DNA of 64,000 nucleotides from an uncultured Pseudomonadota bacterium (GTDB lineage Bacteria > Pseudomonadota > Gammaproteobacteria > Natronospirales > CAVUBB01): assembly GCA_963739695.1 (NCBI GenBank), contig CAVUBB010000005.1, positions 4,342-68,341 on the forward strand. Reading direction: 5' to 3'. Shown here piece by piece: positions 14,885-62,476 of this stretch. The position numbers and the translations under genes were made by a program. Numbering within the stretch: position 1 is the stretch's first letter; each line of letters begins with the position of its first letter. The notes below the pieces were generated by a model. The model did no database searches and was not told where the DNA came from. It saw nothing but the letters and a program-made list of their open reading frames with translations.

Positions 14885-16156
14885 CTAAAAGGAAACCACC
14901 TGGGGCAGAGGTTTGATGAAATGCTGGCGGAGGCTGTAGGTGTAGGCACCCTGGGTGGGAATCAGGAGCATATCACCTACTTCGATGCCGCTGCCCCAGT
15001 AGGAATATCCCCAGACGTCGTGGGGCGTGCAGAGGGACCCCAGCACGTGGCAGGGTGTTTCGGTGAGGGCCGGTCGGGTCAGGTTAAGCACCGGGAAATA
15101 ATCGGTTTCGAACCTCTCCCAGCCGACGGCATTTGTGCCGGCATCGGTTATGACAAGATCCGGCGCTTTTTTATCCACCACGGACATCAAGAGGTGCATG
15201 GCGTCGTTGCATAGCCAGCGGCCGGGTTCACAGCAGATTCGACACCGCAGGTATGGAAAAATATGCGCCTTGACGGCCGCTCCGATCTCTTCGGCAAAAA
15301 CGGCGATGGGTGTCGCCTGTTGATAATAATGATCCTTCGACGCTGTCGGTGGGGTTCCCGAGAGCCGTCTGGTGCATACCCTCAGGGGTGCCCGCCGCCT
15401 GCAGCCATTCTCCTAAGGGCGGCCAGTATCCGCCGCCGATGTCGATGAATCGGATCCGGCTCGACCGTCCGCATCCATCTCCCCGAGAATTTTCCCAGGT
15501 GCCGGATAAAGTCAATCTGGGCCGAAGGGTACAGATTCCAGCTTGTATGGAATTGAACGCCCTTCAAGTTTCACATGGTCGCACGCTTGTGCCTCTGCAC
15601 AGAAAGCGCCGAGCCGCTCCGGGAGAATTCCGAATTTACGCCACAGGCCGTTAGGGTTTGTGGTCAGGCGAACACCGGTACGGACGGATTTTTTCATCGA
15701 TGCGGCGACACTGTTGAGCCGGTGGAGCTCTCCGAAACTGTCCATAAGAACCATCACCCTGTCATGATGGGTTGCGGCCAAAGTCAACTCATCACAGGTT
15801 TTTCCGGGTCCGCTGAAAACGATATCCCGAGCACCCAATGAAAGCGCCATTTCGAGCTCGGGACCGCTGGAAACATCGAGGCCGAATCCGGAACCGAGAA
15901 GAAGACGCGACACCTCGGGGTGGTTGTTGCTTTTAACTGCATAGTAAAATGACGTCTCCGGAAAAACACCGGCAAACGCAGCCCTGAATTCAACAGCCCT
16001 GTCTTTGAGGGCGTTCGCATCCAGAAGATAAAGCGGTGAAGGATTTCCTTTCAGCGCATTGAGAAACAAGTGACGCCGATCGAAATACTCTTTCACAAAC
16101 GCTGCAAGCATCTTCGGGGGCAACCGGGGGATTTTATTCGCTGTTGTTTGTGTCAT
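14885..16156 (-). pseudogene. PLP-dependent Orn/DAP/Arg-decarboxylase-family enzyme (group IV decarboxylase fold), at least 2-3 frameshifts
   Basis: N-half is ORF 15512..16156 (PLYLLD...YYAVKSNNHP PLP-lysine region). GVQFHTS is in ORF 15382..15567, IDIGGGY in ORF 15228..15515, and ...DAGTNAVG...GSLCTPHD...GAYTYS in ORF 14885..15199. All are colinear but in different frames. Confidence 0.75.
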
Positions 16157-16159
16157 ATT

Positions 16160-27773: not shown

Positions 27774-28940
27774 TTGAACATGTCTTCTTCGAAACTGTAC
27801 ACCTTGATCGCTATTCTTCCCATTATTCTATTCGCCGGCTGCGGCGACACAAAAGATTCAGGGCATTCCGATTCGCAAACCGGCGTCAAAGCACCTGTGG
27901 CCACGATCGAGGAAACCGTGCGGCCCATGTATCTTGAAGCAGTAGGAACGATTCAGTCCATGACCACCGGAACCCTATCCGCAAAAATCATGGGCACTAT
28001 CCGGACCGTTCATGTGAAGGAAGGAGACCGTGTCAAGGCAGGCGATCTGCTGGTATCCATCGACAACAGGCAGGTTGCGGCTCAACTCGCCCAGGCGAAT
28101 GCCGTGGTGTCCGAAGCGCGTCAGGGTGCATCCGCCGCCGATTCCGCAAAAAAGGCGGCCCAGGCGGGCGCCGACCTGGCTGCCGCCACCTATGAGCGAT
28201 ATAATAAGCTCCTGGACGATGACTCCGTAAGCCGGCAGGAATACGATGAGGTCTCCGCCAGGTATCAACAGGCCCGGGCCGCCATGAAACAGGCGCAGGA
28301 AATGGCTGCAGCAGCCCGCGCCCGGGTCCACCAGGCGGAATCGGGACTGGCCGCGACTGCGGTCGCCGACAAGGACGCCACTGTCCAGGCGCCTTATAAC
28401 GGCGTCGTCAGCGCCAAACTGGTAGAAGCGGGCGATCTTGCCACACCGGGAAGGCCGCTGCTCACCTTTGAAAGCGAAACCGGCTTTGAAATGGCGGTGG
28501 ATCTTCCTGAAACGCTGTTTGGTTCCGTAGCGACCGGTCAGCCGGTCACGATACGAATTCCCGCGCTGAACGATCTTGCCCTGGCCGGTCAGGTGACAGC
28601 AGTGTCCCCTGCCGCCGACGCACAAAGCCGAAGCTTTCTGGTCAAGATCAGCCTTCCGGAAAACAACCGGGTTCACGCCGGCATGTTTGCCAGGGCTGAG
28701 ATACCCACCGGAGATGAGCGGGTTCTTCTCGTTCCTCGAAGTGCCGTTTTACATCAGGGGCCTCTTACCGGCATCTTTGTCCTGGACGACAAGGAAACAG
28801 CTCGGTTTCGCCTGGTTCGAACCGGCCGCTTCATTAATGATGCGGTGCAGATCATCTCCGGCCTGAAATCGGGCACGCGGTTTGTGACACAACCACCCCC
28901 GACTCTGGCGGACGGCGACAGAGTGGAGGTTGGCCTATGA
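27774..28940 (+). CDS. RND efflux periplasmic adaptor (MFP) lipoprotein
   Basis: Lipobox LFAGC, then barrel-sandwich, coiled-coil and beta-barrel organisation ([24 protein letters not shown]..., [16 protein letters not shown]...). Confidence 0.85.
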
Positions 28941-31900
28941 CTGCAAAAACAGGGCCGTGCCGGAAAAATAGCGGGATTTTTCATCAATTCCAAGCTGACC
29001 CCCCTGATAATTGTCGCTTCCATCCTCCTGGGCATCGCGGCCATCATTGCGCTGCCCCGGGAAGAGGAGCCCCAGATCATCGTCCCCATGATCGACATCT
29101 TTGTCCGGATGCCCGGTTCGATTCAAAGGAAGTGGAGCAGCGATTTACCAAGCCCATGGAAAAACTGCTGTGGGAAATCCCGGGCGTGGAGTATGTCTAT
29201 TCCACCTCCAGCCCGGGCATGTCCATGGCCATCGTGCGGTTTTATGTCGGCGAAGACGAAGAAAAAGCCATTGTACGCCTGCAGTCCAAACTGATGGCCA
29301 ACATGGACCGAATTCCCCTGCTGCGTCACCTCGCCCCTTGATCAAACCGCGCTATATCGACGATGTCCCCATACTGGCGCTCACTTTCTGGGGCGACACT
29401 GCAGATCACTATACCCTGCGACGGGTGGCCGCGGAAGTGGAAGATCTGCTCAAGCGGGAGCCGAATGTCTTCCATCACCACTCTCATCGGCGGTAGAGAA
29501 CCGTCAGGTTGAAGTTCGACTGGATCCGGTCCGTCTGGCGCCTTCGGCCTCGACTGGAAGCGGTAGCCGGCATGTTGTCTTGCCGGCCAACCAGGACGCC
29601 GATGCCGGCAGCTTACCCCTCCTCGTGGGTCAGAGTCTCGTTCATGCCGGCGGATTTTCTCAAGGATGCGGAAGATGTGGCCGGGTGGTGGTCGGCGTAT
29701 CCGGAGCGGCCAAACCGGTATACCTGCGGGATGTCGCCGACATCGTCGACGGCCCCGAGGAGCCCGCCCAGTATGTTTTTTTCGGCAGGACCGGCCGCCG
29801 GGCCGAGAATGCCACGGCCGTCACGGGCGCCATGCATCCGGCGGTCACCCTGACCGTGGCCAAACGCAAGGGAACCAACGCCATCAGCTGTGGCCGACAA
29901 GGTGCTGGAGCGCCTTGAGGATGCCCGCGGCACGGTCATTCCCGACAATATCCACATCACCATCACCCGGCATTACGGCGAAACAGCCAAGGAAAAATCC
30001 GACGAACTGCTGCTTCACATGCTCATCGCCATCATATCGGTTACCGTCCTCATCTGGTTTACCCTGGGGCACCGGGAATCCGGCGTAGTGGCCTTCGCCA
30101 TCCCGGTCACTCTGGCCCTGACTATGGCTGTCTTTTATCTGTACGGCTATACCCTCAACCGCATCACCCTTTTTGCCCTGATTTTTTCCATCGGCATCCT
30201 GGTGGACGACGCCATCGTGGTGGTGGAAAACATCGTGCGCCATTTCCACCTCGATGAAAACCAGGGCCGTAGCCAAATTAAAAGTCGCCATCGAAGCCGT
30301 GGACGAAGTCGGCAACCCCACCATCCTGGCCACCTTGACCGTCATTGCCGCCATTCTTGCCCATGGCCTTCGTGGGCGGACTCATGGGGCCTTATATGCG
30401 CCCGATCCCGGTCGGTTCGTCGGCCGCCATGGTCTTTTCGCTGATTATCGCCTTTATCGTCACCCCCTGGGCTTCGGTGCGGCTGATCCGATAAGCATGA
30501 AACCGCCGGCGGCCGAAGGCCGCAATCGATCACCATCACCGGAAGACTGGGCCACCGTGCTTTACCGCCGGGTCATGGAGCCCTTTGATCCACAGCGCCA
30601 ACTGGCGGTGGGGCTTTCTCTGCGGGTGATCGTAGCTGCTGCTGGTCGCCTTGAGCACTGGTGGCCTGGGACTGGTCCGGGTCAAAATGCTGCCCTTTGA
30701 CAACAAAAGCGAATTTCAGGTGATCATCGATCTGCCCGAATCCGCCACCCTTGAAGAGACCGCCGCCGCTGCCATGGAGATGGGCGATTATCTGAAGACG
30801 GTCAACGAAGTCACCGATTACGAAATTTACGTCGGCACCTCCGGGCCCTTTAATTTCAACGGACTGGTGCGTCATTACTACCTGCGGCACGGCGCCCATA
30901 CCAGGCAGACATCCAGGTGAACCTGGCGGGCAAAGGCAGAGCGCCAAGAACAGAGCCATGCCATCGCCAAACGCGTGCGCCCGGCCCTAAAGAGCCATTG
31001 CCGACCGCTATGGCGCGCGGGTCAAAGTGGCCGAAGTGCCTCCCGGCCCGCCGGTGCTGTCCACCCTGGTGGCGGAAGTATACGGTCCGGATTATCAGCG
31101 CCAGCGTGAACTTGCGCTCAGGATTCGGGGGATATTCGAGCAGACCGCCGGCGTGGTGGATGTGGACTGGTATCATGGAAGGAGACCAGCGAACGCTACC
31201 AGCTGGAGGTGGACCGTCAAAAGGCGGCCCTGCACGGCATCAGCACCGCCCAGATCACCGGCCGCTACGCTCGGCCTGAGCGGACGGCAGGTCGGGTCTG
31301 CTTCATCTGCCGCGAGGAGCGAGAAGATGTGCCGATCATCCTGCGGCTGCCCTGGCATTCCCGGGCCGGCATCGACCGGCTGATGGCCATCAAAATCGCC
31401 AGCCCCGGCGGCAGACCATGATCTCCCTAGCTCCGACCTCGTGCACGGTGAAGCGGACGCCGATCGACAGGAGCATTTACCATAAAAACCTGATGCCGGT
31501 GGTTTACGTGATCGGGGATGTCGCCGGCGGCAAAGGAAAGCCCGGTCTATGCCATTCTGGAAATGCGCAAGAAAGATCGACGGCACTCACGATTCCCGAA
31601 GGTTACCGTATTGCCCAGCATCACCGCCGACTGTCCCGGAAAGCGACCGCAACTTCCCATGAAATGGGACGGCGAATGGCAGATCACCTACGAGGTATTC
31701 CGTGATCTCGGGCATCGCCTTCGCTGTGGTGCTGCATTCTTATTTTCGTGCTGGTGGTAGGATGGTTCCAGTCCTTTTCCACCCCGTTCGTGATCATGGT
31801 GGCCATTCCTTTTTCACTGATCGGGATTCTGCCGGCCCACTGGCTCATGGGTGCTTTTTTCACCGCCACCTCCATGATCGGCTTTATTGCCGGTGCCGGC

Positions 31901-32215
31901 ATCGTGGTACGCAATTCCATCATCCTGGTGGATTTCATCGAACTGCGCGTCAGGCAGGGCATGCCCCTGGATCAGGCGGTGATGGACGCCGGCGCCGTCC
32001 GCTTCCGCCCCATGATGCTGACGGCGGCAGCGGTGGTGGTCGGCGCCTCGGTAATTCTTTTCGATCCGATTTTTCAGGGACTGGCGATCTCTCTGATGGC
32101 CGGTGAAGTTGCTTCTCTGCTTTTTTCGCGCATGACGGTTCCCATCCTCTATTTCTTGAAAAAGCGCTGGGAAAAGACCCATCTACATCATGAAGAAATA
32201 GGAAAGGAACGCTGA
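28937..32215 (+). pseudogene. RND efflux permease (AcrB/CzcA superfamily), shattered by roughly 8 or more frame changes
   Basis: Colinear RND blocks lie in different frames: [48 protein letters not shown] (my translation), [126 protein letters not shown], and [22 protein letters not shown]...[34 protein letters not shown]. Confidence 0.85.
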
Positions 32216-52949: not shown

Positions 52950-53693
52950 ATGATGCAGCAGCAGACCTCTAAAGTCGTGGATTTTGGCGCGCTGCGCCAT
53001 GCCTGCAGCACCTGCTCGCTAAGCGAGCTGTGTGTCGCCATGGGCCTGGACAAGGCGGGCATGGAACAGCTCGACTCCGTCGTCGAGCAATCGGGCCCCC
53101 TCCACGCCGAGGAGCACCTGTTCCGCGTGGGCGACCGCTTCCGTGCGGTCTATGCGGTGCGCTCCGGCTGCCTCAAGACCTACACCGTCGACAGCCTGGG
53201 CCGCGAGCAGGTCCTGGGCTTTCACCTCCCGGGCGAGCTGGTGGGGCTGGATGCGATCTACCCCAATCGCCACCGCTGCAACGGGGTTTCCCTCGATACC
53301 TCCTCGGTCTGCGTCCTGCCCTATGCGGAGCTGAACCGCCTGGCGCATGAGATTCCGAGCCTGCAGCAGCAGATCTTCAGGCTCATGAGCAAGGATATCG
53401 CCAATTCCTCCATGCTCTCGGGCGATTACACCGCCGAAGAGCGCCTGGCCAGCTTCCTGCTGGGCATGTCGCAGCGCCTGCGCCGCCGCGGCTATTCGGA
53501 AACTGATTTCAACCTGGCCATGTCGCGCCGCGATATCGCCAATTACCTGCGTCTCGCCACGGAGACGGTGAGCCGGGTGTTCAAGCGCTTCCAGCTCGAC
53601 GGCCTGATCAAGGTCGAGCGCCGGGCTATCCAGATATTGGATATGGAGCGGTTGAAGGAGATGGCGAGTTGTATTGGGGCGTTTGATGCCTGA
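52950..53693 (+). CDS. fnr: FNR/Anr-type oxygen-sensing Crp-family regulator
   Basis: N-terminal Cys cluster CSTCSLSELC (C-x2-C-x5-C) plus central NRHRCNG Cys. cNMP-like fold. C-terminal HTH RRDIANYLRLATETVSRVFKRF (E--SR recognition helix). GGAGAG SD 6 nt before ATGATG. Confidence 0.9.
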   Translation: MMQQQTSKVVDFGALRHACSTCSLSELCVAMGLDKAGMEQLDSVVEQSGPLHAEEHLFRVGDRFRAVYAVRSGCLKTYTVDSLGREQVLGFHLPGELVGLDAIYPNRHRCNGVSLDTSSVCVLPYAELNRLAHEIPSLQQQIFRLMSKDIANSSMLSGDYTAEERLASFLLGMSQRLRRRGYSETDFNLAMSRRDIANYLRLATETVSRVFKRFQLDGLIKVERRAIQILDMERLKEMASCIGAFDA

Positions 53694-53764
53694 TTGGGGC
53701 GAGACTGCGTCTCGCGCTCGCTAGAAGGTTTGGCGCTTGCCGCGCCAGGGCTGATTTAGGAAAA

Positions 53765-53793
53765 AGCCTCCGCTGGAAAGCGGGGGCTTTTTT
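53765..53793 (+). terminator. Rho-independent terminator after fnr
   Basis: AGCCTCCGC-tggaaa-GCGGGGGCT stem (one G-U) followed by T6 and preceded by A5. Confidence 0.7.
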
Positions 53794-53832
53794 GTTTGGA
53801 GGTTTCGCTCGCCCCTTCGGGGCTTTCAGCGA

Positions 53833-53866
53833 CCTACTTTCCTTTGCGCCGCCAAAGGAAAGTAGG
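53833..53866. repeat. perfect 14-bp-stem hairpin in a GC-rich ORF-poor stretch
   Basis: CCTACTTTCCTTTG-cgccgc-CAAAGGAAAGTAGG. Confidence 0.5.
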
Positions 53867-54299
53867 CAAAGGAAAGGCGGCCCCGGAGGCGGCGCGCTTG
53901 CTTCCGGCTTCGCCTCCAGCGCGTTCCCGGCCGTGCTCGCGTCCTCGCGGCCGCCCATACAGGCCATCCCTGGCCTGGATGGGCGGGCTTCGGCATCCCT
54001 GCCTCGCCCGCACCTGCGGTGCGGCTATTCGCTCCGGGCGCTGCGCTGTCCGGCGCCGTCTACGGGCGGGGGGGCAGTGCCCGACGCTCGGTTCTCTTAG
54101 TTCTCTTAGCGATGCCTACACCCAGGAACCCGGATTCCAGGCGATGTCGCAAAGTTCACTCCTCTCGAATGTGTCTGGGGTGGTCAACTGCTCCATTTCA
54201 ATGCAGGGGGAAAATTGATGACCGCGGGAGATCAAGCCTAGTATCAGTTTTCGCCCCTGGAAACCCGACTCCGCGTTAAGCGAAGGGTAGTCCAATACG

Positions 54300-54485
54300 G
54301 TGGGCGCAAGATAAAGGTGGCGGAAGGCCCCTCAACATCAGGTGTGTGAGCCAGTATGGACTGGCTCTCAACTAATCGGGAGTTCCGAACATAAGTTTAG
54401 GCGAATCCCGAATAGTGAGCGCGCTAGAGCAAGCCCGAGCGCAAGCGTAATCTTGGCGCCTTCCGCCAAAAGTAGTATTGCCGAA
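54300..54485 (-). ncRNA. candidate structured non-coding RNA immediately 3' of the second RT gene
   Basis: No credible ORF between 54110 and 54485. An 11-bp long-range pairing (54318-54328 TGGCGGAAGGC with 54458-54468 GCCTTCCGCCA) encloses nested hairpins: 54348-54367 GAGCCAGT-atgg-ACTGGCTC (perfect 8 bp) and 54376-54410 CGGGA...TCCCG. Strand is assumed from the RT operon. Confidence 0.4.
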
Positions 54486-56537
54486 CTAGTACACCGAACG
54501 CAATTCCTTTCTCTCAAGTAGCTTCCGCAAATTGAGTGCCTTCCATTTTACAAACCAATATGTCGACTCCAGTCGGGAAATGTCCGCAGTTATCTGCTCT
54601 GCGCTTACAGGATCGCTGCTCATTGGGAATGCCTTATAGAATGACTCGAGAAGCCGGCACCGGAGTGCCTCACTAAGGTACGGGCAGGTTATTGTATCTA
54701 GAAAAAGATGAGCCAGTTCCGAATCCGTCTCAAGGTCATGCATGTTTTTATCAGATAATCTTCTAGCAATGACCTTTTCTAGCGATTTCACCAATTCGCC
54801 ATAGTCCGACTTATCTTGAAAGTAATAAATAAACGCAACCAAGTGAAAATAGCTAAGCTGTTCTTCCTTAGAAAGCCAGTCACTAAACCAAGAACTTGGC
54901 ATTGCGTGAGAGGCGCCAAAATCGGCGGTAGCAATGATAATATTCAGTGTCTCCAAGGCGATATACTTATCATCGACCACCGGCGACTTATGGTGTTCGA
55001 TAAACTTCGCAACATTGCGTATGATTTCTGCCCGTATATAGGGCTGCGATGCGTTAAAACTGCGTCCAAAAAATTCGTCAACTATAAGTATAGTCTTTGA
55101 TATTTTCGTAGAGCTCTCTGGCCTTGGGCTAACGAAGTGCAAGAAAAACATTAGATCCAAGTAGACGCATATTACGTCCCTAACCGCATATTCTAGTGTG
55201 TCATCATCTATCCATTTAATTCTCTTCCTTGTTGATTCGATAAGCCGAATTATTCGGTGGCTAAAGGCTGCCTGGCAGAGATTGGCTATAGAAGAATATC
55301 CCTCACCGCTTTGGCTTGCGGCTATGCGAATCTGGTCAATGAGGTTCTTCGTAACGGCGGTGCGACGGCCCTTCAAGTGTTTGGGCTCAAGATTGGGTGC
55401 GCCACCGAATCCTTGGTCGCTATCAGACTCACGAAATAGCTTACCTTCAATGTCCTGAATAGCCTTTATTGCGAAGACTCGTGGTCGATTAATTAAGAAG
55501 GGCCGTTCAAATCTTCTGCTTTTCGTTTCGCCGATATGGAGATTGAAGTCGTTTAATTTGTTCTTTATTGCTTCAGTGACTTTCTTGGCCGTCGCATCAT
55601 CTTCGGCAAACAAGAAATAATCATCCATGAAACGTACAACAGAATATTGTTCTCCATGATTAAATCCGTGCTTTTCCAGGACAGCTGTTAGCACCTGTTT
55701 GTCTAGATGCTGGAATATCATCTCAGCGAAAATGCGGCTGACTTCGTTGCCAACTGGTATTCCATTTGTCTCTAGGTAGTTACTCCTTTGCATGAGCTGG
55801 TCTAGTTGGCTTCCGATTTGATTCTTGAACTGTTTATGAAATTTAGCAAATTTCTTCGTCTTGAGCGCCCAAGATATTGAATGGGAGTAGATGGTGTAAA
55901 AACAGCGCATTACATCCAACGTATAGAGCAAAGGATACTTCTTTTCTAGTTCGATAAACTGCTCACTGTCAAAGAATTTATGTAGCCGACTATATTTGTT
56001 GTAGGCGAAATAAGATGACGCATGACGCGACCAAATCTGCTCGTCAAGAGTATCTATGTCGATTTCTTTGTATTGACGCGTAGGGTCTCGTTCCTTCGCG
56101 AAGAAGGAACTGGACACAGATATCGGTGCCCGTATCGAGAATTCACTGTTGCTACACTGCCAAGTTATAGCGGAATAGAAATCTCTATAGAAAAGAGCCC
56201 AGCTTAATTGCGAGTGCGGGTGGAGCAGTGCTAACCGCCTAGTGTCGCCCGTTTTCTTCCATATTCTATAGTGGTGGGGGACTGTATAACGGACCTGCTT
56301 CCCGACGAGGCGTTGTCCTGCATTCGGTGGCTGAACGATTTTCCTGTAAATATGCTGAACGATCTTACTCAAGCGCGTGTCCGTTGGTGCTGGCGTGACT
56401 GATAGTGCCTCGACACGTTGGGCATTGAGGTAAAACCCATCATTCGAGAATATGATTGGAACATCGCCGGGAGCAGTATCGGTCAAGAGAGCGCGGAGGT
56501 AGTCTTTCTTGTCTAGCTGGATTCGGTGTTTGGTCAT
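54486..56537 (-). CDS. reverse transcriptase 2 (large, Abi/UG-type RT with ~330-aa C-terminal extension; UG8/Drt3b-like by architecture)
   Basis: RT blocks: IWKKTGDTRRLALLHPHSQL (fingers), LYTLDVMRCFYTIYSHSI (motif A), GIPVGNEVSRIFAEMIF (motif B), VVRFMDDYFLFAED (YxDD-type motif C), NLHIGETKS (motif D/E). Likely ATG at 56537 overlaps the RT1 stop as ATGA. AT-rich codon usage. Confidence 0.8.
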   Translation of the reverse strand: MTKHRIQLDKKDYLRALLTDTAPGDVPIIFSNDGFYLNAQRVEALSVTPAPTDTRLSKIVQHIYRKIVQPPNAGQRLVGKQVRYTVPHHYRIWKKTGDTRRLALLHPHSQLSWALFYRDFYSAITWQCSNSEFSIRAPISVSSSFFAKERDPTRQYKEIDIDTLDEQIWSRHASSYFAYNKYSRLHKFFDSEQFIELEKKYPLLYTLDVMRCFYTIYSHSISWALKTKKFAKFHKQFKNQIGSQLDQLMQRSNYLETNGIPVGNEVSRIFAEMIFQHLDKQVLTAVLEKHGFNHGEQYSVVRFMDDYFLFAEDDATAKKVTEAIKNKLNDFNLHIGETKSRRFERPFLINRPRVFAIKAIQDIEGKLFRESDSDQGFGGAPNLEPKHLKGRRTAVTKNLIDQIRIAASQSGEGYSSIANLCQAAFSHRIIRLIESTRKRIKWIDDDTLEYAVRDVICVYLDLMFFLHFVSPRPESSTKISKTILIVDEFFGRSFNASQPYIRAEIIRNVAKFIEHHKSPVVDDKYIALETLNIIIATADFGASHAMPSSWFSDWLSKEEQLSYFHLVAFIYYFQDKSDYGELVKSLEKVIARRLSDKNMHDLETDSELAHLFLDTITCPYLSEALRCRLLESFYKAFPMSSDPVSAEQITADISRLESTYWFVKWKALNLRKLLERKELRSVY

Positions 56538-57811
56538 CGCCAAATCCTCGCAATCTCGTGAAGCCGTGATGGACTGAATTTGCGGCGGATACGCATCTGA
56601 AACCCAGTCACGAACCGGAGGTTGGTTAGTGACTGGCGCTGTCCTGATGTGAGGGAACCTCTCAGAGCTTTGCCAAGACGGCCATGAAGGCCGAGGATGA
56701 AGCAGCGAGTGAATTTGTCTAGCTCCCGGAGAGCCTGCGACCTACTTCCTATTGCGGCGTAGTTATAGTAGATGCCCGCAGAAATAGGCCTACTATCTCT
56801 TTTAGATTTTACGTATCTATTACTAGTTAGAAAAGCCAACCTGTCAAACAACAGATCGTAGTCTCTATTCTTTAGGTAGGCAGAGAAAGACTGCGCAATT
56901 CTGGTTTTAATCTTACGAACTTTGTCGGGTGAAATATCTACATCGACGTAGCGGAATGATGCCAGCGATTGTTTTTTGGAGCTCGCGATATCGAATACAG
57001 TGTATTGGTAGCCAAGAAAACTTACTTGTAGTTTCCTGTCTCCTTCGGGATGGGTAAGAGTGACAGATTGATTGTCCGCTCTGGCTGTTAAGGTTTTCTC
57101 AGTATTAAAGTGCAGTCCAGTAGGTAAATTATCTTCCAGGTGCGTATGGAAATCTTGGTGTCTCTCATTCCCGGTTGTCATGATGAAAATATCGTCAACG
57201 AAGCGCGTGTAGTAAAGCACCCCTTGCTGTCGCACAGCCGCCCGGTCAAATTTAGAGAGTAGTAGATCAGCTAGCATGGGGCTTGTTTCGACGCCTCGCG
57301 GTAGACCGGGTCCAAACAGGCTTTGAAACAGTGAGGTATGAGTAAGAAGTAGCCGCGCGGCATGAGAACCAATAGAACTATGCTGTTGGAGGAGGTGCCG
57401 CAAGCATGAGAGTTGAATAGATTCGAAGAAGTTGCGTATATCAAGACGGTATACGCGGTATTGCGTACCCTCTCGCAGGAAGGTCGATATCTCCCTCGCA
57501 ATATCATTTCGATGCTTATGTGGATGGCATATTGCGTAGCGGAGATGTTCGTTGCAGAGCCTTAGTACGAGTTTCTCAGATAAAGTCGTAACACGGTATG
57601 CAGCTTTTCCAGAGATTCTAGTCTGTTCCAAACTTATCCCAGAACCAAACAATGTTTCCGCCGTGTTGAGCGCCCTCTCGACAACCTGGCCGCGATAGGT
57701 GTCGTCACTGAGCCGTGAGTCGTGATAGAAATCGTCGTCTATGAAGCATCTAGCCAAATTAGAGTAGCTGAAGGATTGGTTCTTCATGGCTATTGTGCAG
57801 GTCCCTTCCAT
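56534..57811 (-). CDS. reverse transcriptase 1 (compact RT; UG3/Drt3a-like by architecture)
   Basis: LSEKLVLRLCNEHL (motif 2), YRLDIRNFFESI (motif A), GLPRGVETSPMLADLLL (motif B), YTRFVDDIFIM (motif C), LHFNTEKT, SFLGYQY (motif 7). 425 aa. An alternative ATG is at 57787. Confidence 0.85.
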   Translation of the reverse strand: MEGTCTIAMKNQSFSYSNLARCFIDDDFYHDSRLSDDTYRGQVVERALNTAETLFGSGISLEQTRISGKAAYRVTTLSEKLVLRLCNEHLRYAICHPHKHRNDIAREISTFLREGTQYRVYRLDIRNFFESIQLSCLRHLLQQHSSIGSHAARLLLTHTSLFQSLFGPGLPRGVETSPMLADLLLSKFDRAAVRQQGVLYYTRFVDDIFIMTTGNERHQDFHTHLEDNLPTGLHFNTEKTLTARADNQSVTLTHPEGDRKLQVSFLGYQYTVFDIASSKKQSLASFRYVDVDISPDKVRKIKTRIAQSFSAYLKNRDYDLLFDRLAFLTSNRYVKSKRDSRPISAGIYYNYAAIGSRSQALRELDKFTRCFILGLHGRLGKALRGSLTSGQRQSLTNLRFVTGFQMRIRRKFSPSRLHEIARIWR

Positions 57812-57896
57812 GAGTAATTAGTTGGAGTAGAGTATAGTAAAAATATTGTGCTTCGGTGCGCATCGCGCCAGATTAAAGATCTTCCAGAGGATAGTG

Positions 57897-57937
57897 AGCG
57901 TAGGTTGGGCTGACAGAGGAAGTGCAACAACTGGCGC
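57897..57937 (+). repeat. 41-bp repeat family B, copy 1
   Basis: AGCGTAGGTTGGGCTGACAGAGGAAGTGCAACAACTGGCGC. About 35/41 identical to 58301..58341. Confidence 0.7.
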
Positions 57938-57960
57938 ATGATTAGATGCCAAATGAGGGT

Positions 57961-57987
57961 AGATCATGGACATCCATGATGTTCGCC
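57961..57987 (+). repeat. repeat family A core, copy 1 (variant with 1-nt insertion)
   Basis: AGATCATGGACATCCATGATGTTCGCC, 46 nt upstream of the ATG at 58007. Confidence 0.65.
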
Positions 57988-58006
57988 ATTAGGTAAGGAA
58001 GTCAGA

Positions 58007-58198
58007 ATGACAACGAAAAGGCGCATTCTCATCTTTTTGGCAACTCTTACATTCTTCGCTTTATCGATTCTGTTTGGTCTACACACCAAATATGGAGACC
58101 CATGGGGTACACCGGGGACGGATTGGGGGCGAGTGATCTTATCAGGGGTGTTCGGTTTAGCTGGGGTGGGGTCCTTCTTCCTGGCATTGGGCCGGTGA
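58007..58198 (+). CDS. small two-TM membrane protein (hypothetical)
   Basis: 63 aa: ILIFLATLTFFALSILFGL...VILSGVFGLAGVGSFFLAL. Good SD (AAGGAAG) 7 nt upstream. Confidence 0.5.
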   Translation: MTTKRRILIFLATLTFFALSILFGLHTKYGDPWGTPGTDWGRVILSGVFGLAGVGSFFLALGR

Positions 58199-58300
58199 CG
58201 AATGTAGCTCTCGACACCCACTATCTGCATTGCAGCGGGTCGGAAGCGGATATTTGGGGTCAGAGTAAAAACTCTAGGGTGCAGGAGATGCGCTGCTAGC

Positions 58301-58341
58301 AGCGTAGGTTGGGCTGACGGAGGAGGCCCAACAATTGGCGC
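58301..58341 (+). repeat. 41-bp repeat family B, copy 2
   Basis: AGCGTAGGTTGGGCTGACGGAGGAGGCCCAACAATTGGCGC. Contains the hairpin GGTTGGGC-N11-GCCCAACa. Confidence 0.7.
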
Positions 58342-58405
58342 TAGAATACAAGCCTTTCTAGCCACGTGCGCCGGCATGGGATTGGGGATGGATACATTAG
58401 ACAAT

Positions 58406-58462
58406 AGATCTGGACACCCATTACTCTCAAAGGCTCCGAAAGAGAGCTAAGTGACTGATTGG
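58406..58462 (+). repeat. repeat family A, long (57-bp) copy 2
   Basis: AGATCTGGACACCCATTACTCTCAAAGGCTCCGAAAGAGAGCTAAGTGACTGATTGG, identical to 58619..58675. Confidence 0.85.
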
Positions 58463-58586
58463 GGCATGATTTCAGTGGGGTGATGGCTGATCGGGGTCGG
58501 ATCAGCATAAGTAGCCACATCTGGGCTTCGCTCAATATCATTAAGGGTGCTGAGGTCCGGTCTCGCCAGAAGTCGAGGTACGAGAT

Positions 58587-58612
58587 AGATCTGGACACCC
58601 ATAATTCTCGAA
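58587..58612 (+). repeat. repeat family A core, copy 3
   Basis: AGATCTGGACACCCATAATTCTCGAA, directly abutting copy 4. Confidence 0.75.
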
Positions 58613-58618
58613 TGGGCT

Positions 58619-58675
58619 AGATCTGGACACCCATTACTCTCAAAGGCTCCGAAAGAGAGCTAAGTGACTGATTGG
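58619..58675 (+). repeat. repeat family A, long (57-bp) copy 4
   Basis: Identical 57-mer to 58406..58462. Confidence 0.85.
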
Positions 58676-58719
58676 CGGCATAATGAATAGGATTGGGGAA
58701 CAGGGTAGGGAGCCCCGGA

Positions 58720-59127
58720 GTGTATAGAGAATTTCTTCTCAGCGCGGTTGTATCGGCTGTCTACACCACTTTCTTGCTCACGCTGCTGGCCACGGCCGTC
58801 ATCTTGAGAGGAGCGTGTCTGTATACATTCTGGCTGCCTCGGGAGTTTCAGATGCTCAGCCCATTTTGGGTAACCGTTGTTGCAGCAATTAGCCTTTCGC
58901 TCTGGGCATTCGCTGGGCTGCGCCGGGCTATCCGACAGCGGCGGAAGGCGGCGTGGCCGGTGCTGTATCACATGTTCGCGGTTATATGCCTGGTATGGTG
59001 GCTGTATGATCTGCATGGGTTCTGGCGCGCCATGGAGTATGAGCGAGGCGTTATCCCGGCTGCGCAATATTTCACCAACGGCATTCCTGGAATCGGAACC
59101 AAGCCATATCTGTGCCATGGGTGGTAG
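58720..59127 (+). CDS. hypothetical four-TM membrane protein
   Basis: ORF 58693..59127 has four hydrophobic segments (LLSAVVSAVYTTFLLTLLATAVIL, WVTVVAAISLSLWAFAGL, VLYHMFAVICLVWWLY ...). Start is uncertain (GTG 58720 or TTG 58693). Confidence 0.45.
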   Translation: MYREFLLSAVVSAVYTTFLLTLLATAVILRGACLYTFWLPREFQMLSPFWVTVVAAISLSLWAFAGLRRAIRQRRKAAWPVLYHMFAVICLVWWLYDLHGFWRAMEYERGVIPAAQYFTNGIPGIGTKPYLCHGW

Positions 59128-59131
59128 AAGT

Positions 59132-59158
59132 AGATCTGGACATCCATGATTCTCACGA
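59132..59158 (+). repeat. repeat family A core, copy 5
   Basis: AGATCTGGACATCCATGATTCTCACGA, 47 nt upstream of the ATG at 59179. Confidence 0.75.
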
Positions 59159-59178
59159 CATCCAGGATTGGGGGCAAC

Positions 59179-59964
59179 ATGCGAAGACATTTTCTTCTTG
59201 TTCTGACGGCAGCCATGGTTGCCGGTTGTGCGCAGCAGGCTGTGCGGCCAGCGCAACAGAAAACAGCGCAACCACGGGCATTCATAGATCGGAGCGCAAT
59301 CTTCTATCCGAAATCCGGCGATAAGTTCGATCTGATTCGAGAATACACGTATGCCAACGTCGCCTCAGGCATTCAATTGACGTACGAGGCTGAAGATCTT
59401 CCTTCCGCAAAGATCGACATCTTCGTCTACCCGGTCGGCGATGTGCCCGAGGACAAGGCATTGGCTATCGATATGAAGGATGTCCAGACAGGTGTCGAAG
59501 GCATGGTAAGGCAGGGCAGGTACAGCGAAGTCCAGTATGGGGCATTGTCCGATTTCAATGTGCCGCTCGGCAAGGACAGCACTTTGTCCGGTAAGAGGCA
59601 GCTCCTCACGTTCGATCTGGATGGGACGCCCATGGTCTCGGCGGCCTATCTTGCGTACAAGCAGCTTTATCTTTTCGAGCTGCGGATAACTTCGGCAGCG
59701 GTTACCGAGCAGCAGCTGGCACCCGTCGGAGACCGGATTGCCACTGAAGCCTTTCGCAAGATTCACATCCTGAGTGAAGGAAAATGTGCATCTCCCACCG
59801 TGGAGGTCGGGAAAAACGCAGATCAGCTGAGGCAATCGCTCATGGCCGCGATGAAGCATGTCCTCGCAGTATCATGTACGACTGAGTTTCAACCAGGCGC
59901 GCTCAAGCCTGGCGACAATGAAGATGTGACGGTCCTCACGTTCCGGCCTCAGGACTGGAATTAG
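59179..59964 (+). CDS. hypothetical lipoprotein
   Basis: MRRHFLLVLTAAMVAGCAQQ (lipobox VAGC). 261 aa. No family recognised. Confidence 0.6.
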   Translation: MRRHFLLVLTAAMVAGCAQQAVRPAQQKTAQPRAFIDRSAIFYPKSGDKFDLIREYTYANVASGIQLTYEAEDLPSAKIDIFVYPVGDVPEDKALAIDMKDVQTGVEGMVRQGRYSEVQYGALSDFNVPLGKDSTLSGKRQLLTFDLDGTPMVSAAYLAYKQLYLFELRITSAAVTEQQLAPVGDRIATEAFRKIHILSEGKCASPTVEVGKNADQLRQSLMAAMKHVLAVSCTTEFQPGALKPGDNEDVTVLTFRPQDWN

Positions 59965-59975
59965 TCGGTTGGACA

Positions 59976-60004
59976 AGATCTGGACCCCATAATTCGCAAA
60001 GGCG
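59976..60004 (+). repeat. repeat family A core, copy 6 (variant with 1-nt deletion)
   Basis: AGATCTGGACCCCATAATTCGCAAAGGCG, 12 nt after the lipoprotein stop. Confidence 0.7.
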
Positions 60005-60159
60005 CCAGAAATGCGCCCATATGGGCAGGTCTTTGACTCATGATTGCTCAACCGTCAGCAGCGGTATCCGCAATCACGACCCAAAGACCTGTTTCCCCTT
60101 GTTTCCAGTAGCGCCGTGGCGGTGGTTTGTCGTCCTCAAACCATGGCAGGCGTTACTCG

Positions 60160-60783
60160 CTATTGGTTGTTCGGCAGCACGACGATGTGGACGGTTGCCG
60201 ATGCCCACGGCGCGCCGTAGTAAGTGGCCTCCCAGCGGCTGATGTACTCGCCGGGGGCGAGTTGGGTGATGAACGCGCGCTGTTGATACAAGGTCAGGCC
60301 CCAGTCGGGTCGGTGCATCTGTTTGTAGCCGGTGCGATCGAGTGACTGCTCTGTCAGTGGGCCACCCACCGGACCGAACCACACGCGGTCTTCATACGCG
60401 TCGGTGTCGGCGATCGCTCCGGCCAGGGTGAATCCCCAGTTCTTGTAGTCGAAAAGATAGACGATGCCGCCGACGATGAAGTCACCGCTGTGGAAGGTGT
60501 AGGTGGCGCCGTCGGCGAATACGCGGAACTGGCAGTGCAGGGTGCCGCCGCCGACGCCGGCGCGTTGATTGCGCAGCGCGAAGTCGGTTGACTGGACATA
60601 GCCCACGGGCAGTGCCTGTAGGGTCGAGCTGGCTTCGCCCCAGCCGCAGTGGGTGTCGTCTTTGGCGAAGACCGTCTGGCTGAGGACGATCGACAACAGC
60701 AACGTGACCGTTGCCGCTACCCGCGCCATGACCGCGGCGGTGGCGATCAGCGGCTTTGCCGGGGTGAGATTTGAATGCGTCAT
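60160..60783 (-). CDS. hypothetical secreted protein
   Basis: MTHSNLTPAKPLIATAAVMARVAATVTLLLSIVLSQTVFA signal-like N-terminus. High G+C like the host background. Confidence 0.6.
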   Translation of the reverse strand: MTHSNLTPAKPLIATAAVMARVAATVTLLLSIVLSQTVFAKDDTHCGWGEASSTLQALPVGYVQSTDFALRNQRAGVGGGTLHCQFRVFADGATYTFHSGDFIVGGIVYLFDYKNWGFTLAGAIADTDAYEDRVWFGPVGGPLTEQSLDRTGYKQMHRPDWGLTLYQQRAFITQLAPGEYISRWEATYYGAPWASATVHIVVLPNNQ

Positions 60784-60904
60784 GGCAAGCTCCCGTCCGT
60801 TGAAGGTTCTATGAGCTTGCAAGACTGGTTCGGCCAAGTCCCGGCAAAACCGCGAAAAAACTGCTATAAAACTGCTAAGAGCGCTTCACAACGGGGGTTG
60901 CTGG

Positions 60905-62476
60905 ATGCTCAGGCCAGTCACTCGCAGTCAGGCACGCCATCGGGTGTACCGGTTCGGCGACTTCCATCTCGATCTTGACCGGGAATCGCTGTCGCGCGGC
61001 GGTCAGGCATTGAAGCTTCGGCCGAAATCCTTCGCCGTACTCAGATACCTGGTTGAACACGCCGGCCGCCTGGTGAGCAAGGAAGAGCTGCTGGCGGAGA
61101 TCTGGGGCCACCTTCACGTCTCGGAAGGCTCGCTCACCCAGTGTCTTATCGATATCCGCCGGGTGCTGGCCGATGCGGATCATCAGATGGTACGGACGGT
61201 GCCCCGGCGCGGCTACATCTTCGAGCTGAAAGTCAGCGCGTCTGGATCCGCCCCTGCCAAATCCAATGCTTCACGGCGGCTCTTGCCACTCCGATTTTCC
61301 CTATCGGCCTTGGCCGTTCTGGTGCTGCTTGTCGTCGGCGGTGTGTGGGGCGTGCGCTACGTTGTCCGTTCCGCGATCGGGCCGATGGCTGTGGCGCATC
61401 ATGCGGCGCCGAACGCGATTGCGACACAGCCCACTCAAACTCTGAATCCGGTACCGGCCAGGCCGGACGATGCGGGGTCGGCAAAGGTGAAATATTCACC
61501 CGCCTACAATCACTACCAGCGTGGCGAGTTCTTCTGGCATCGGCGTGCCGCCGGCGACATGGCGCTCGCGGAACGAGAGTTTCGCCAGGCGACACAGGCA
61601 GACCCTGGATATGCTCCCGCATGGACGGGGCTGGCCGGCGCGTTGTGGGGGCGTATCCTCAATGCCGGCAAAGCGCCGGCGCCGGGTGAACTCGAAGCCT
61701 ACCGCGACGCCCTGGAACATGCGGTGGCAGCCGATCCAAACCTGGCCGAAGCACACATGCGGCTCGCCAACTACTATCTGGTGGTCGAGAACTATCCGGA
61801 GTTTCATGCGCATTGGGAGAAGGCCCGTGCGCTTGCGCCGGATGACCTCCTCGTGCTCGGCTGGGGTGCAGCCTTTGCCGCCTGGCACGGGCATTATCAG
61901 CAGGCGATCAGCTTGCAGCGTCGCGCGGCCGAGGTGGCCCCTCTTTCTGCCGTAGTGCATGCGAATCTCGCAGGATTTCTGATGGCCGGTGGGCGTTTCA
62001 AGGAAGCGGAGTCGGAGTTTCGCCAGGTGCTGGAGCTCAGCCCGCGAATGAACAGCGCCGACCCGAACTTTCTCTCGCCCGCCAGTGGTCTGGCGTTGGC
62101 CATGATCCTCCAGAAACGTTATGCACAAGCACTTGCAGTCATCGACAAACAGCCCTCTGATGCTCCCGGCAACAAGCAGGTAGAGGCGCTAGCCTACTGG
62201 GGCATGGGCCGCAGAGCTGAGTACACCAAGGCAGTCGCGCAGCTGGAGCGTGAAGGTGGTCCCAGTACACAGTTGCGTCTGGCTGAGCTGGACGCGTTCC
62301 GGGGCCATCGGGAGGACGCCTTCAGCCATCTGCGGGCAGCCGTGGATGGCGTGAATGACATGAATGGGCCTACCGCAAAGTGGGACCTGCTGCAGGAATT
62401 GCGCTTGTCGCCATTCCTTATCCCGTTGCGCGACGATCCGCTTTGGGCGCAACTGACGAGATTACCGGATGCCTGA
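60905..62476 (+). CDS. membrane-anchored winged-helix (OmpR/CadC-type) transcriptional regulator with C-terminal TPR domain
   Basis: YRFGDFHLDLDRESLSRGGQALKLRPKSFAVLRYLVEHAGRLVSKEELLAEIW...VRTVPRRGYIFE (Trans_reg_C). One TM (LSALAVLVLLVVGGVWGV). TPR-like repeats after it. Confidence 0.8.
   Translation: MLRPVTRSQARHRVYRFGDFHLDLDRESLSRGGQALKLRPKSFAVLRYLVEHAGRLVSKEELLAEIWGHLHVSEGSLTQCLIDIRRVLADADHQMVRTVPRRGYIFELKVSASGSAPAKSNASRRLLPLRFSLSALAVLVLLVVGGVWGVRYVVRSAIGPMAVAHHAAPNAIATQPTQTLNPVPARPDDAGSAKVKYSPAYNHYQRGEFFWHRRAAGDMALAEREFRQATQADPGYAPAWTGLAGALWGRILNAGKAPAPGELEAYRDALEHAVAADPNLAEAHMRLANYYLVVENYPEFHAHWEKARALAPDDLLVLGWGAAFAAWHGHYQQAISLQRRAAEVAPLSAVVHANLAGFLMAGGRFKEAESEFRQVLELSPRMNSADPNFLSPASGLALAMILQKRYAQALAVIDKQPSDAPGNKQVEALAYWGMGRRAEYTKAVAQLEREGGPSTQLRLAELDAFRGHREDAFSHLRAAVDGVNDMNGPTAKWDLLQELRLSPFLIPLRDDPLWAQLTRLPDA

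Follow-up and report, generated by a model that had tools for sequence, protein, structure and literature searches.

Six direct copies of a short box between small genes beside a DRT3 operon: a candidate cis-regulatory element on reshuffled intergenic spacers

A stretch of 64 kb of DNA from an uncultured gammaproteobacterium (contig CAVUBB010000005.1; hereafter the window, meaning the whole stretch analysed) contains six copies (c1 to c6) of a 24-nt box, TAGATCTGGACAYCCATNAYTCTC, all within positions 57960-59997 and all on the + strand. The boxes punctuate a run of three small open reading frames (ORF1 to ORF3) that is divergent from an operon for two reverse transcriptases (RTs). An initial annotation of this DNA likened the arrangement to an integron with RTs in the position of the integrase. 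This raises the question of what the boxes are: sites for gene capture, copies of a dispersed repeat, relics of local duplication, or sites through which the small genes are expressed. We rank the last possibility first, and do so tentatively: the copies may represent a cis-regulatory box of one orientation, carried on paralogous intergenic spacers that were reshuffled by recombination between copies.

The box is far more frequent in this region than expected. Allowing two or fewer mismatches, the pattern TGGACAYCCATNAYTCTC had five matches in the window (57967, 58411, 58592, 58624 and 59137, all on the + strand), compared with 0.01 expected from shuffled sequences, and the sixth copy (59975-59997) carries a 1-nt deletion. 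A profile for nhmmer built from the six copies recovered these with E-values ranging from 1.3e-7 to 3.1e-5, and detected nothing else significant in the window, leaving zero copies in the other 62 kb. A possible seventh copy located after the ORF1 stop codon (58206-58227) obtained an E-value of 6.5, which is noise, and was not counted. The number and orientation of the copies given in the initial annotation were borne out, and the positions agree within 1 nt.

When aligned from their sharp left edge the copies can be written as TAGATC(A)TGGACAYCCATNAYTCTC. The left half of the box, TAGATCTGGACA, is invariant, and the right half sets three subtypes with two copies apiece: type I, TCCATGAT (c1 and c5), type II, CCCATTAC (c2 and c4), and type III, CCCATAAT (c3 and c6). 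The single-base indels noticed previously are real, c1 having an extra A after TAGATC and c6 lacking an A. Inspection of the alignment showed that these indels change the reading frame and that the variable positions are not synonymous, which rules out conservation of the box as a peptide and upholds the proposed conservation at the nucleotide level. The palindrome proposed for the core, ATCATGGA-CA-TCCATGAT, is perfect in c1 only, and the other five copies do not display dyad symmetry.

Copy c1 (57960-57984; E-value 1.9e-5) precedes the ATG of ORF1 by 47 nt, in the intergenic region from which drt3a and ORF1 diverge. Copy c2 (58405-58428) is the start of a 58-nt unit that ends at 58462, and is not followed by an ORF. 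Copy c3 (58586-58609, with an 8-nt tail to 58617) is in tandem with c4 (58618-58641, unit to 58684), and the latter is positioned 102 nt upstream of the GTG start codon of ORF2. Copy c5 (59131-59154) begins 3 nt past the ORF2 stop codon and 48 nt before the ATG of ORF3. Finally, c6 (59975-59997, with an extension to 60011; E-value 3.1e-5) begins 10 nt past the stop codon of ORF3; it is type III-like, with TAG changed to AAG in addition to the deleted A. This agrees with the earlier description, according to which copies 1, 4 and 5 precede ORF starts and copy 6 follows the last ORF. All six boxes are intergenic (P ~0.004, given that 61% is coding), and all six share their orientation with the three ORFs (P ~0.016).

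The similarity between copies is not limited to the box. An exact 58-nt duplicate (58405-58462 and 58618-58675) begins with the 24 nt of c2 and c4, respectively, and extends to 67 nt at 97% identity; the tandem pair c3 and c4 has a period of 32 nt with 8 nt between the boxes. A second repeat on the + strand, D3, is present 10 nt upstream of c1 (D3a, AGCGTAGGTTGGGCTGAC...CAACAAYTGGCGC, 57897-57950, 54 nt) and 51 nt upstream of c2 (D3b, 58301-58354, containing GTTGGGC-N11-GCCCAAC followed by AATTGG). A block composed of D3 and the box is duplicated, the identities being 81% for D3 and 76% for the box (c1 versus c2). On the right-hand side, c3 resembles c6 over about 33-46 nt, and the extension of c6 is similar to those of c2, c3 and c4; on the left-hand side, short similarities connect c3 with c5, c2 with c6, and c4 with c6. 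These mosaic flanks indicate that the intergenic segments are paralogous spacers, which have been reshuffled by exchange at or near the box.

According to the explanation that we rank first, the six boxes would be paralogous copies of a single intergenic spacer, with a 24-nt core embedded in a unit of 35-70 nt, and this spacer would separate independently acquired genes for small envelope proteins in a 2-kb foreign patch; the patch would adjoin a complete DRT3 defence system and yet be functionally separate from it. The core would most likely be a cis-regulatory site recognised, in a single orientation, by a factor whose gene lies elsewhere. Possible forms are an operator or "stoperator"-like DNA site and a leader or intercistronic RNA box, in each case between the stop codon of a unit and the ribosome-binding site of the unit that follows. 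Being near-identical direct repeats, the boxes would also provide homology for unequal recombination and gene conversion, and these processes would explain why the flanks are mosaic, how the exact 58-nt duplicate and the tandem pair with its 32-nt period arose, and why some intervals lack an ORF. Recombination between boxes would in this way have produced the present order, and a regulator would presumably bind or read the box.

The geometry of the array favours a cis-acting expression element. Thus, the two type-I copies are found at almost the same distance (47 and 48 nt) before the ATGs of unrelated genes. In addition, the gap between ORF2 and ORF3 is only 51 nt, too short to hold a terminator as well as a separate promoter, and c5 must therefore be inside a shared transcript or right at a promoter. 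The pair of c3 and c4 in tandem has the look of binding sites, and so does c1 with its palindrome in the control region between the divergent drt3a and ORF1; an 8-nt spacing such as that of c3 and c4 is normal for binding sites and hard to obtain by site-specific excision.

Several results weigh against a regulatory function. No sigma-70 promoter (-35 and -10 hexamers, spacer of 16-18 nt) was detected on the + strand at any of the boxes, and such sites are as numerous in the region as in shuffled sequences. The initial annotation listed a shared promoter, operator or 5′-untranslated-region element as an alternative, and this is the reading placed first here, although no sigma-70 promoter is detectable. 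Comparison by eye gave no convincing match with sites for sigma-54, sigma-E/ECF, sigma-32, FNR, CRP, LexA, Fur, PhoB, IHF or NarL, and the island in which the array lies does not contain a regulator gene. Moreover, three copies (c2, c3 and c6) do not have an ORF directly downstream. The identity between the boxes of c1 and c2 is no higher than that of the adjacent D3, and hence there is no sign of extra constraint on the box for that pair. Finally, a second genome with the box, which would be needed to demonstrate conservation under selection, was not found in the collections searched.

The equal divergence of c1/c2 and D3a/D3b (76% versus 81%) is what would be expected if the boxes were functionless relics, that is, copies of an intergenic segment generated by local duplication, slippage and gene conversion that are now decaying. 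The exact 58-nt duplicate and the 32-nt tandem pair are typical of slippage and duplication, and neither a structure, nor a recognisable promoter, nor a partner was found for the box. Three observations make this neutral explanation unlikely. The core is 80-100% identical while the adjacent sequence is unrelated in most pairs of copies; none of the six copies is in coding sequence, and their orientation is uniform; and the presence of the same spacer between unrelated genes is not the outcome expected of plain tandem duplication.

ORF1 (58007-58198, + strand) encodes a 63-aa protein that contains two hydrophobic segments, as described before, and is preceded by a good Shine-Dalgarno sequence. 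Of the three ORFs this one is the least certain, since the public gene index did not contain it among its called genes. ORF2 (58720-59127, + strand, GTG start) encodes a small membrane protein of 135 aa, for which a Kyte-Doolittle analysis gave three clear hydrophobic segments instead of the four transmembrane segments proposed initially. It has 33 distant relatives (best identity 43%) with a clear conserved pattern, indicating that these constitute a real family of small membrane proteins, and it has no close relative and belongs to no named family. ORF3 (59179-59964, + strand) encodes a lipoprotein of 261 aa with lipobox VAGC, in line with its first assignment. Alignment with homologues identified the ATG at 59179 as its true start, and only three clusters of homologues (55-58% identity) are present among 5.8 billion proteins. 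The AlphaFold model of ORF3 was unusable (pLDDT 36), and none of the three ORFs matched an entry in Pfam, NCBIfam, PADLOC or PHROGs.

The neighbourhoods of the ORF2 and ORF3 homologues differ in every lineage examined. In most cases the neighbours are compact runs of small accessory genes on the same strand, such as those encoding GNAT, GFA, glyoxalase, DUF1801 and cupin proteins. This variety indicates that the ORFs are part of a flexible accessory pool. In one of these runs (L028/L029) a textbook attC site is located one gene away, and most of the other intergenic regions near ORF2 relatives (L024 and L027) lack an attC-like fold. The notion that ORF2 is an integron cassette elsewhere, based on L028, is weakly supported.

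Some further features of these genes were observed. Proteins of the ORF2 family have about 135-160 aa, share the motifs CLYTFWLP, SPFW and WLY..G.W.AM.YERG and have a C-terminal Cys; their genes recur in small accessory-gene runs (L027, L028/L029 and L024), once near a canonical attC site. The octamer GATTGGGG recurs on the + strand of the array, with five occurrences in about 1 kb (58121, 58380, 58457, 58691 and 59166), and is also found at 53692, at the stop codon of the fnr-like gene to the left. It is situated 5 nt upstream of the start codon of ORF3 and abuts the start of the lipoprotein homologue in L006, and AATTGGGG is found 5 nt upstream of the corresponding start in L002; the octamer may belong to a leader or ribosome-binding-site module that these genes have in common. 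An inverted type-I core, ATGAAGGATGTCCAGA, is present inside ORF3 (59473-59488), 322 nt downstream of c5, to which it is complementary at 14 of 16 positions. The DNA of L006, whose lipoprotein gene was the one homologue compared, does not retain this inverted core.

The attC sites of integrons contain conserved AAC/GTT triplets in their R boxes and have a conserved hairpin and a poorly conserved sequence (PMC4889954). The layout of the array fits the integron resemblance proposed initially: there are n+1 co-oriented repeats for unrelated small ORFs, c5 and c6 closely follow stop codons, and all sites are oriented as the ORFs. The resemblance ends there. We judged the boxes by direct inspection and by folding together with a positive control. 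The attC triplets (R′′ RYYYAAC and R′ GTTRRRY) are at no conserved position in the six aligned copies. Strict and relaxed searches for RYYYAAC..GTTRRRY did not find a pair in the array, although the same scans also missed a true attC site. Predicted RNA folds of the units had z-scores of -1.1 to +1.5, and single-stranded DNA folds of both strands, including compound units of D3 and box, had z-scores of -1.9 to +0.4, none of which is significant; the positive control, an attC site at L028:715-782, had a z-score of -4.8 and paired from end to end. The absence of AAC/GTT cores and of a significant fold rules out that the box is an attC site. The only attC-like words near the array are GTTGGGC and GCCCAAC in D3, in the wrong order and, at 11 nt apart, too close together. 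These words and the AATTGG that follows are of the type seen in the R and L boxes of attC sites; their presence may be a coincidence, or may be what is left of attC sites that have decayed.

Also in disagreement with a complete integron, no Phage_integrase domain was found among the ~45 major ORFs of the window and it is drt3a that heads the array. The same Pfam scans did not reveal a transposase or any other recombinase domain, which confirms the initial statement that a tyrosine or serine recombinase is absent. An attB-type explanation was considered as well: the 3′ end of the fnr-like gene and the c2 unit match at 13 of 14 positions over 14 nt, which is the chance level for a 6.6-kb region.

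A cassette array could nevertheless exist independently of integrons. In that case the box would be a simple site in double-stranded DNA for a recombinase encoded elsewhere in the genome, which would insert and excise single-gene units there. Crossover would take place within or close to the invariant left half, TAGATCTGGACA, a sequence that includes the palindrome AGATCT. The n+1 sites for n units and the start of boxes 3-10 nt past stop codons are as expected for such an array, and so is the contrast between the invariant left half and a right half (I, II or III) that tends to travel with the downstream flank. The ORFs are, moreover, unrelated and foreign, and their rare homologues occur in quite different neighbourhoods, one of them a gene away from a genuine attC site. 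Yet no recombinase was found in the 64 kb, five of the six copies lack dyad symmetry and there is no conserved arm to the left of the putative crossover. In addition, sites separated by 8 nt, as c3 and c4 are, cannot arise by excision. Searches of 185,579 species representatives, of JGI metagenomes and of IMG/VR also failed to reveal the box beyond single chance matches, and the sole other contig with this DNA is identical and does not show a variant arrangement. Together these results make a true cassette array improbable. It is more doubtful still that the array is a second, non-attC gene-cassette platform in a defence island, which would capture genes without IntI, attC hairpins or an adjacent enzyme.

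Similarly, public collections offered little to indicate that the box is a dispersed repeat. A scan of the species representatives of GTDB (185,579) gave a single chance match to the box, IMG/VR none and JGI metagenomes 12 chance matches, several of them in coding sequence such as that for GDLDTHD. All of these matches (one genome contig and 12 metagenome contigs) are single-copy, and no locus with multiple copies was found in the collections scanned. The 58-nt extension and the D3 repeat had no match in IMG/VR, and nothing similar to the whole 2.3-kb region was present in plasmid or phage collections. The search of the motif recommended in the initial annotation therefore had two outcomes: in the window the box is confined to the array, and the public collections gave only single chance matches. 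Most likely, the box is found only in this lineage. Box-like words do occur near homologues of the lipoprotein gene, namely AGAGTCTGGACAC after the stop codon in L002 and GATCT..GATTGGGG upstream of the gene in L002 and L006. We do not claim conservation of the box across lineages because the local alignments are not significant compared with shuffled sequences (best P ~0.04-0.06 before correction for 5 units x 12 flanks).

In public data, this DNA is found in a single further contig, L011 (Logan ERR11594398), which is 100% identical over 5,355 nt. It breaks inside the 58-nt duplicate, as would be the case for a k-mer assembler.

The box could still be a genome-wide repeat of another organism, either a repetitive extragenic palindrome (REP), a miniature inverted-repeat transposable element (MITE) or another type, that was imported with the 2-kb patch; its rarity in the host window would then be uninformative. 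The foreign composition of the patch is compatible with such an origin, as are the extragenic location of the boxes, their position immediately past stop codons and the GTAG with which some of them (c1 and c5) begin, as do many REPs. Related lineages, in addition, carry other palindromic intergenic repeats (L006 and L024). However, no terminal inverted repeats or target-site duplications surround the 24-, 32- or 58-nt units, c1 alone is palindromic, and all copies are direct whereas REP clusters alternate in orientation. The collections searched did not contain a multi-copy locus or a candidate donor, and scans of the window ORFs did not detect a transposase or a REP-associated tyrosine transposase (RAYT). 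We consider import of a donor repeat quite unlikely, and the MITE or REP alternative of the initial annotation, which also lacks copies elsewhere in the window, turns out to be weak. As for bacterial interspersed mosaic elements (BIMEs), the confinement of the box to the array within the 64 kb analysed of the 176-kb contig, the single palindromic copy and the uniform orientation do not conform to this type of element either.

A different, strong inverted repeat (60026-60091, fold z-score -3.57) closes the array at the right edge of the island and looks like a terminator or a REP-like palindrome. Its arm GGGCAGGTCTTTGACTCATGAT has one mismatch to a degenerate pattern derived from the palindromic GGGTCAGGTCTTTGATTTATGAT elements of L006, which flank small genes there (1144-1198, 1749, 1862 and 3045), and similar words (GGGTCA/GGGTCG..GTCTTG) are present at the ends of L024. 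These inverted-repeat words may belong to a REP-like family of this gammaproteobacterial lineage.

As to the RTs, their operon (54486-57787, - strand) is outside the repeat array and encodes Drt3a (56534-57787, - strand, 417-425 aa; PADLOC E-value 4.8e-123) and Drt3b (54486-56543, - strand, 685 aa; PADLOC E-value 6.3e-183). DRT3 systems are composed of two RTs plus an ncRNA (non-coding RNA) encoded downstream of drt3b that contains an ACACAC template loop; DNA synthesis by both RTs is needed for defence, and the downstream effector of the DRT3-induced growth arrest is still unknown, as stated among the limitations of that study (PMC13174585). A candidate for the ncRNA is present downstream of drt3b (54300-54475, - strand), with the ACACAC template at 54342-54347 in an invariant block at 54332-54349. 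This block (TCACACACCTGATGYTGA, read on the - strand) does not differ between the window and the two nearest DRT3 loci, which have only ~40% protein identity to that of the window (41% and 40% for Drt3a), and is inside a stem with compensatory changes. Since Drt3a, Drt3b and the ncRNA with its template are all present, the DRT3 system is complete without the array. The boxes, for their part, are upstream of drt3a, on the strand opposite to DRT3, and lack ACACAC, and hence are not DRT3 ncRNAs.

Neither of the two closest DRT3 loci (L025 and L026) has an array of small ORFs upstream of drt3a; defence genes of other kinds (Mrr/NERD/Fic genes or a BrxR-WYL regulator) are found there instead. In the loci examined, relatives of ORF2 and ORF3 never adjoin RTs. 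The box is not complementary to the DRT3 ncRNA, duplex energies being no better than those of shuffled boxes, and array and DRT3 differ in the G+C content at third codon positions (GC3). Adjacency, divergent orientation and the unknown DRT3 effector are all that speak for a functional tie between the array and the RTs, either as an accessory or effector module of DRT3 or through capture of the units by RT-mediated events; such a tie is largely refuted and exceedingly improbable. The view that the RTs occupy the position of an integrase is not supported.

The array and the DRT3 operon are located in a low-GC island (~54.1-60.0 kb) between an fnr-like gene and a convergent gene for a secreted protein. 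GC3 is 0.55-0.64 for ORF1 to ORF3, 0.49 for drt3a and drt3b, and 0.80-0.87 for the core genes. The array is therefore compositionally unlike both its neighbours and constitutes a 2-kb foreign patch. The window does not contain tRNA genes, and no Rfam family matched at gathering score in the whole window or at E<=1 in 57700-60200.

Other features were noted around the island and further away. Between the fnr terminator (~53750-53795) and the island is a GC-rich, repeat-like filler (53800-54100), which gives rise to spurious ORFs of considerable length in several frames; the left edge of the island may be an insertion hotspot marked by this filler. Immediately to the right of the island, the gene for the secreted protein (60160-60837, 225 aa, function unassigned) is divergent from a gene (60905-62476) for a CadC/ToxR-like membrane-bound regulator with an N-terminal winged helix, a transmembrane segment and a periplasmic TPR region. 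This regulator is a candidate trans-factor for the boxes. In the left part of the window two genes, one for an AcrB-type transporter and one for an Orn/DAP decarboxylase, are each split into several ORFs (28841-32215 and 14885-16159), and GC3 is low for ORFs in the region of 1-33 kb (0.5-0.65, versus 0.8-0.87 for those at 36-53 kb). Pseudogenes, a large region of foreign origin or frameshift errors of the assembly there are possible causes.

If the box is regulatory, it would be one more lineage-specific cis-element, useful mainly for annotating the island, and the three small envelope genes would form one controlled unit apart from DRT3. If, on the other hand, the boxes are recombination sites, genes would have been captured one by one without integron machinery, which would bear on how accessory genes build up beside defence systems. 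A further, negative outcome is that a cassette-like layout beside RTs is no evidence that RTs act as capture enzymes, the RTs here being those of a standard, complete DRT3 system.

Small gene modules between sites of the 28-bp class, moved by host recombinases encoded elsewhere, are known as Xer/dif modules (pdif and integrative mobile elements exploiting Xer, IMEX). Like these, the array consists of small gene modules bounded by repeated short sites, but the box lacks an 11-6-11 dyad and pdif sites alternate in orientation. By inspection, the box matches the gammaproteobacterial dif consensus, which may not be that of the host, at 7 of 11 positions of the XerC arm and at ~2 of 11 of the XerD arm. 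REPs and BIMEs are comparable in being short extragenic repeats just past stop codons, and c1 has a partial GTAG head and a palindromic core; they differ in being distributed genome-wide in hundreds of copies, each palindromic and alternating in orientation, whereas the box is present six times in 2 kb. With integrons, and with clusters of attC sites lacking an integrase (CALINs; PMC4889954), the array shares unrelated small ORFs in one orientation that are mostly of unknown function, n+1 sites, a repeated site within a few nt of the stop codon and, as in CALINs, the lack of an integrase nearby; some relatives of ORF2 and ORF3 also occur in cassette-like runs. The difference is in the sites, an attC site being an imperfect hairpin of 57-141 nt with AAC/GTT triplets that is conserved in structure, whereas the box is 24-58 nt long and conserved in sequence.

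Precedents for a regulatory box exist in two other systems. Near-identical promoter regions can be reused before unrelated genes (mobile promoters; PMC3575422). In both cases the same short upstream sequence precedes unrelated genes of one genome, and the copies are related by descent and not by convergence. In contrast to mobile promoters, the box does not contain a recognisable sigma-70 promoter, three copies have no gene directly downstream and all are within 2 kb. Mycobacteriophages have repressor sites of one orientation near stop codons, the stoperators, which are read by a single trans-acting repressor (PMC9283540). Like the boxes, these are short asymmetric sites that recur many times, have one orientation with respect to transcription and are located in short intergenic gaps near stop codons; they differ in being 13-14 bp long and belonging to phage genomes with a known repressor, the box having neither a phage context nor a repressor candidate in the island. 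As a whole, the array is of a known kind, that of the lineage-specific intergenic repeat boxes, with a box that is private to one lineage.

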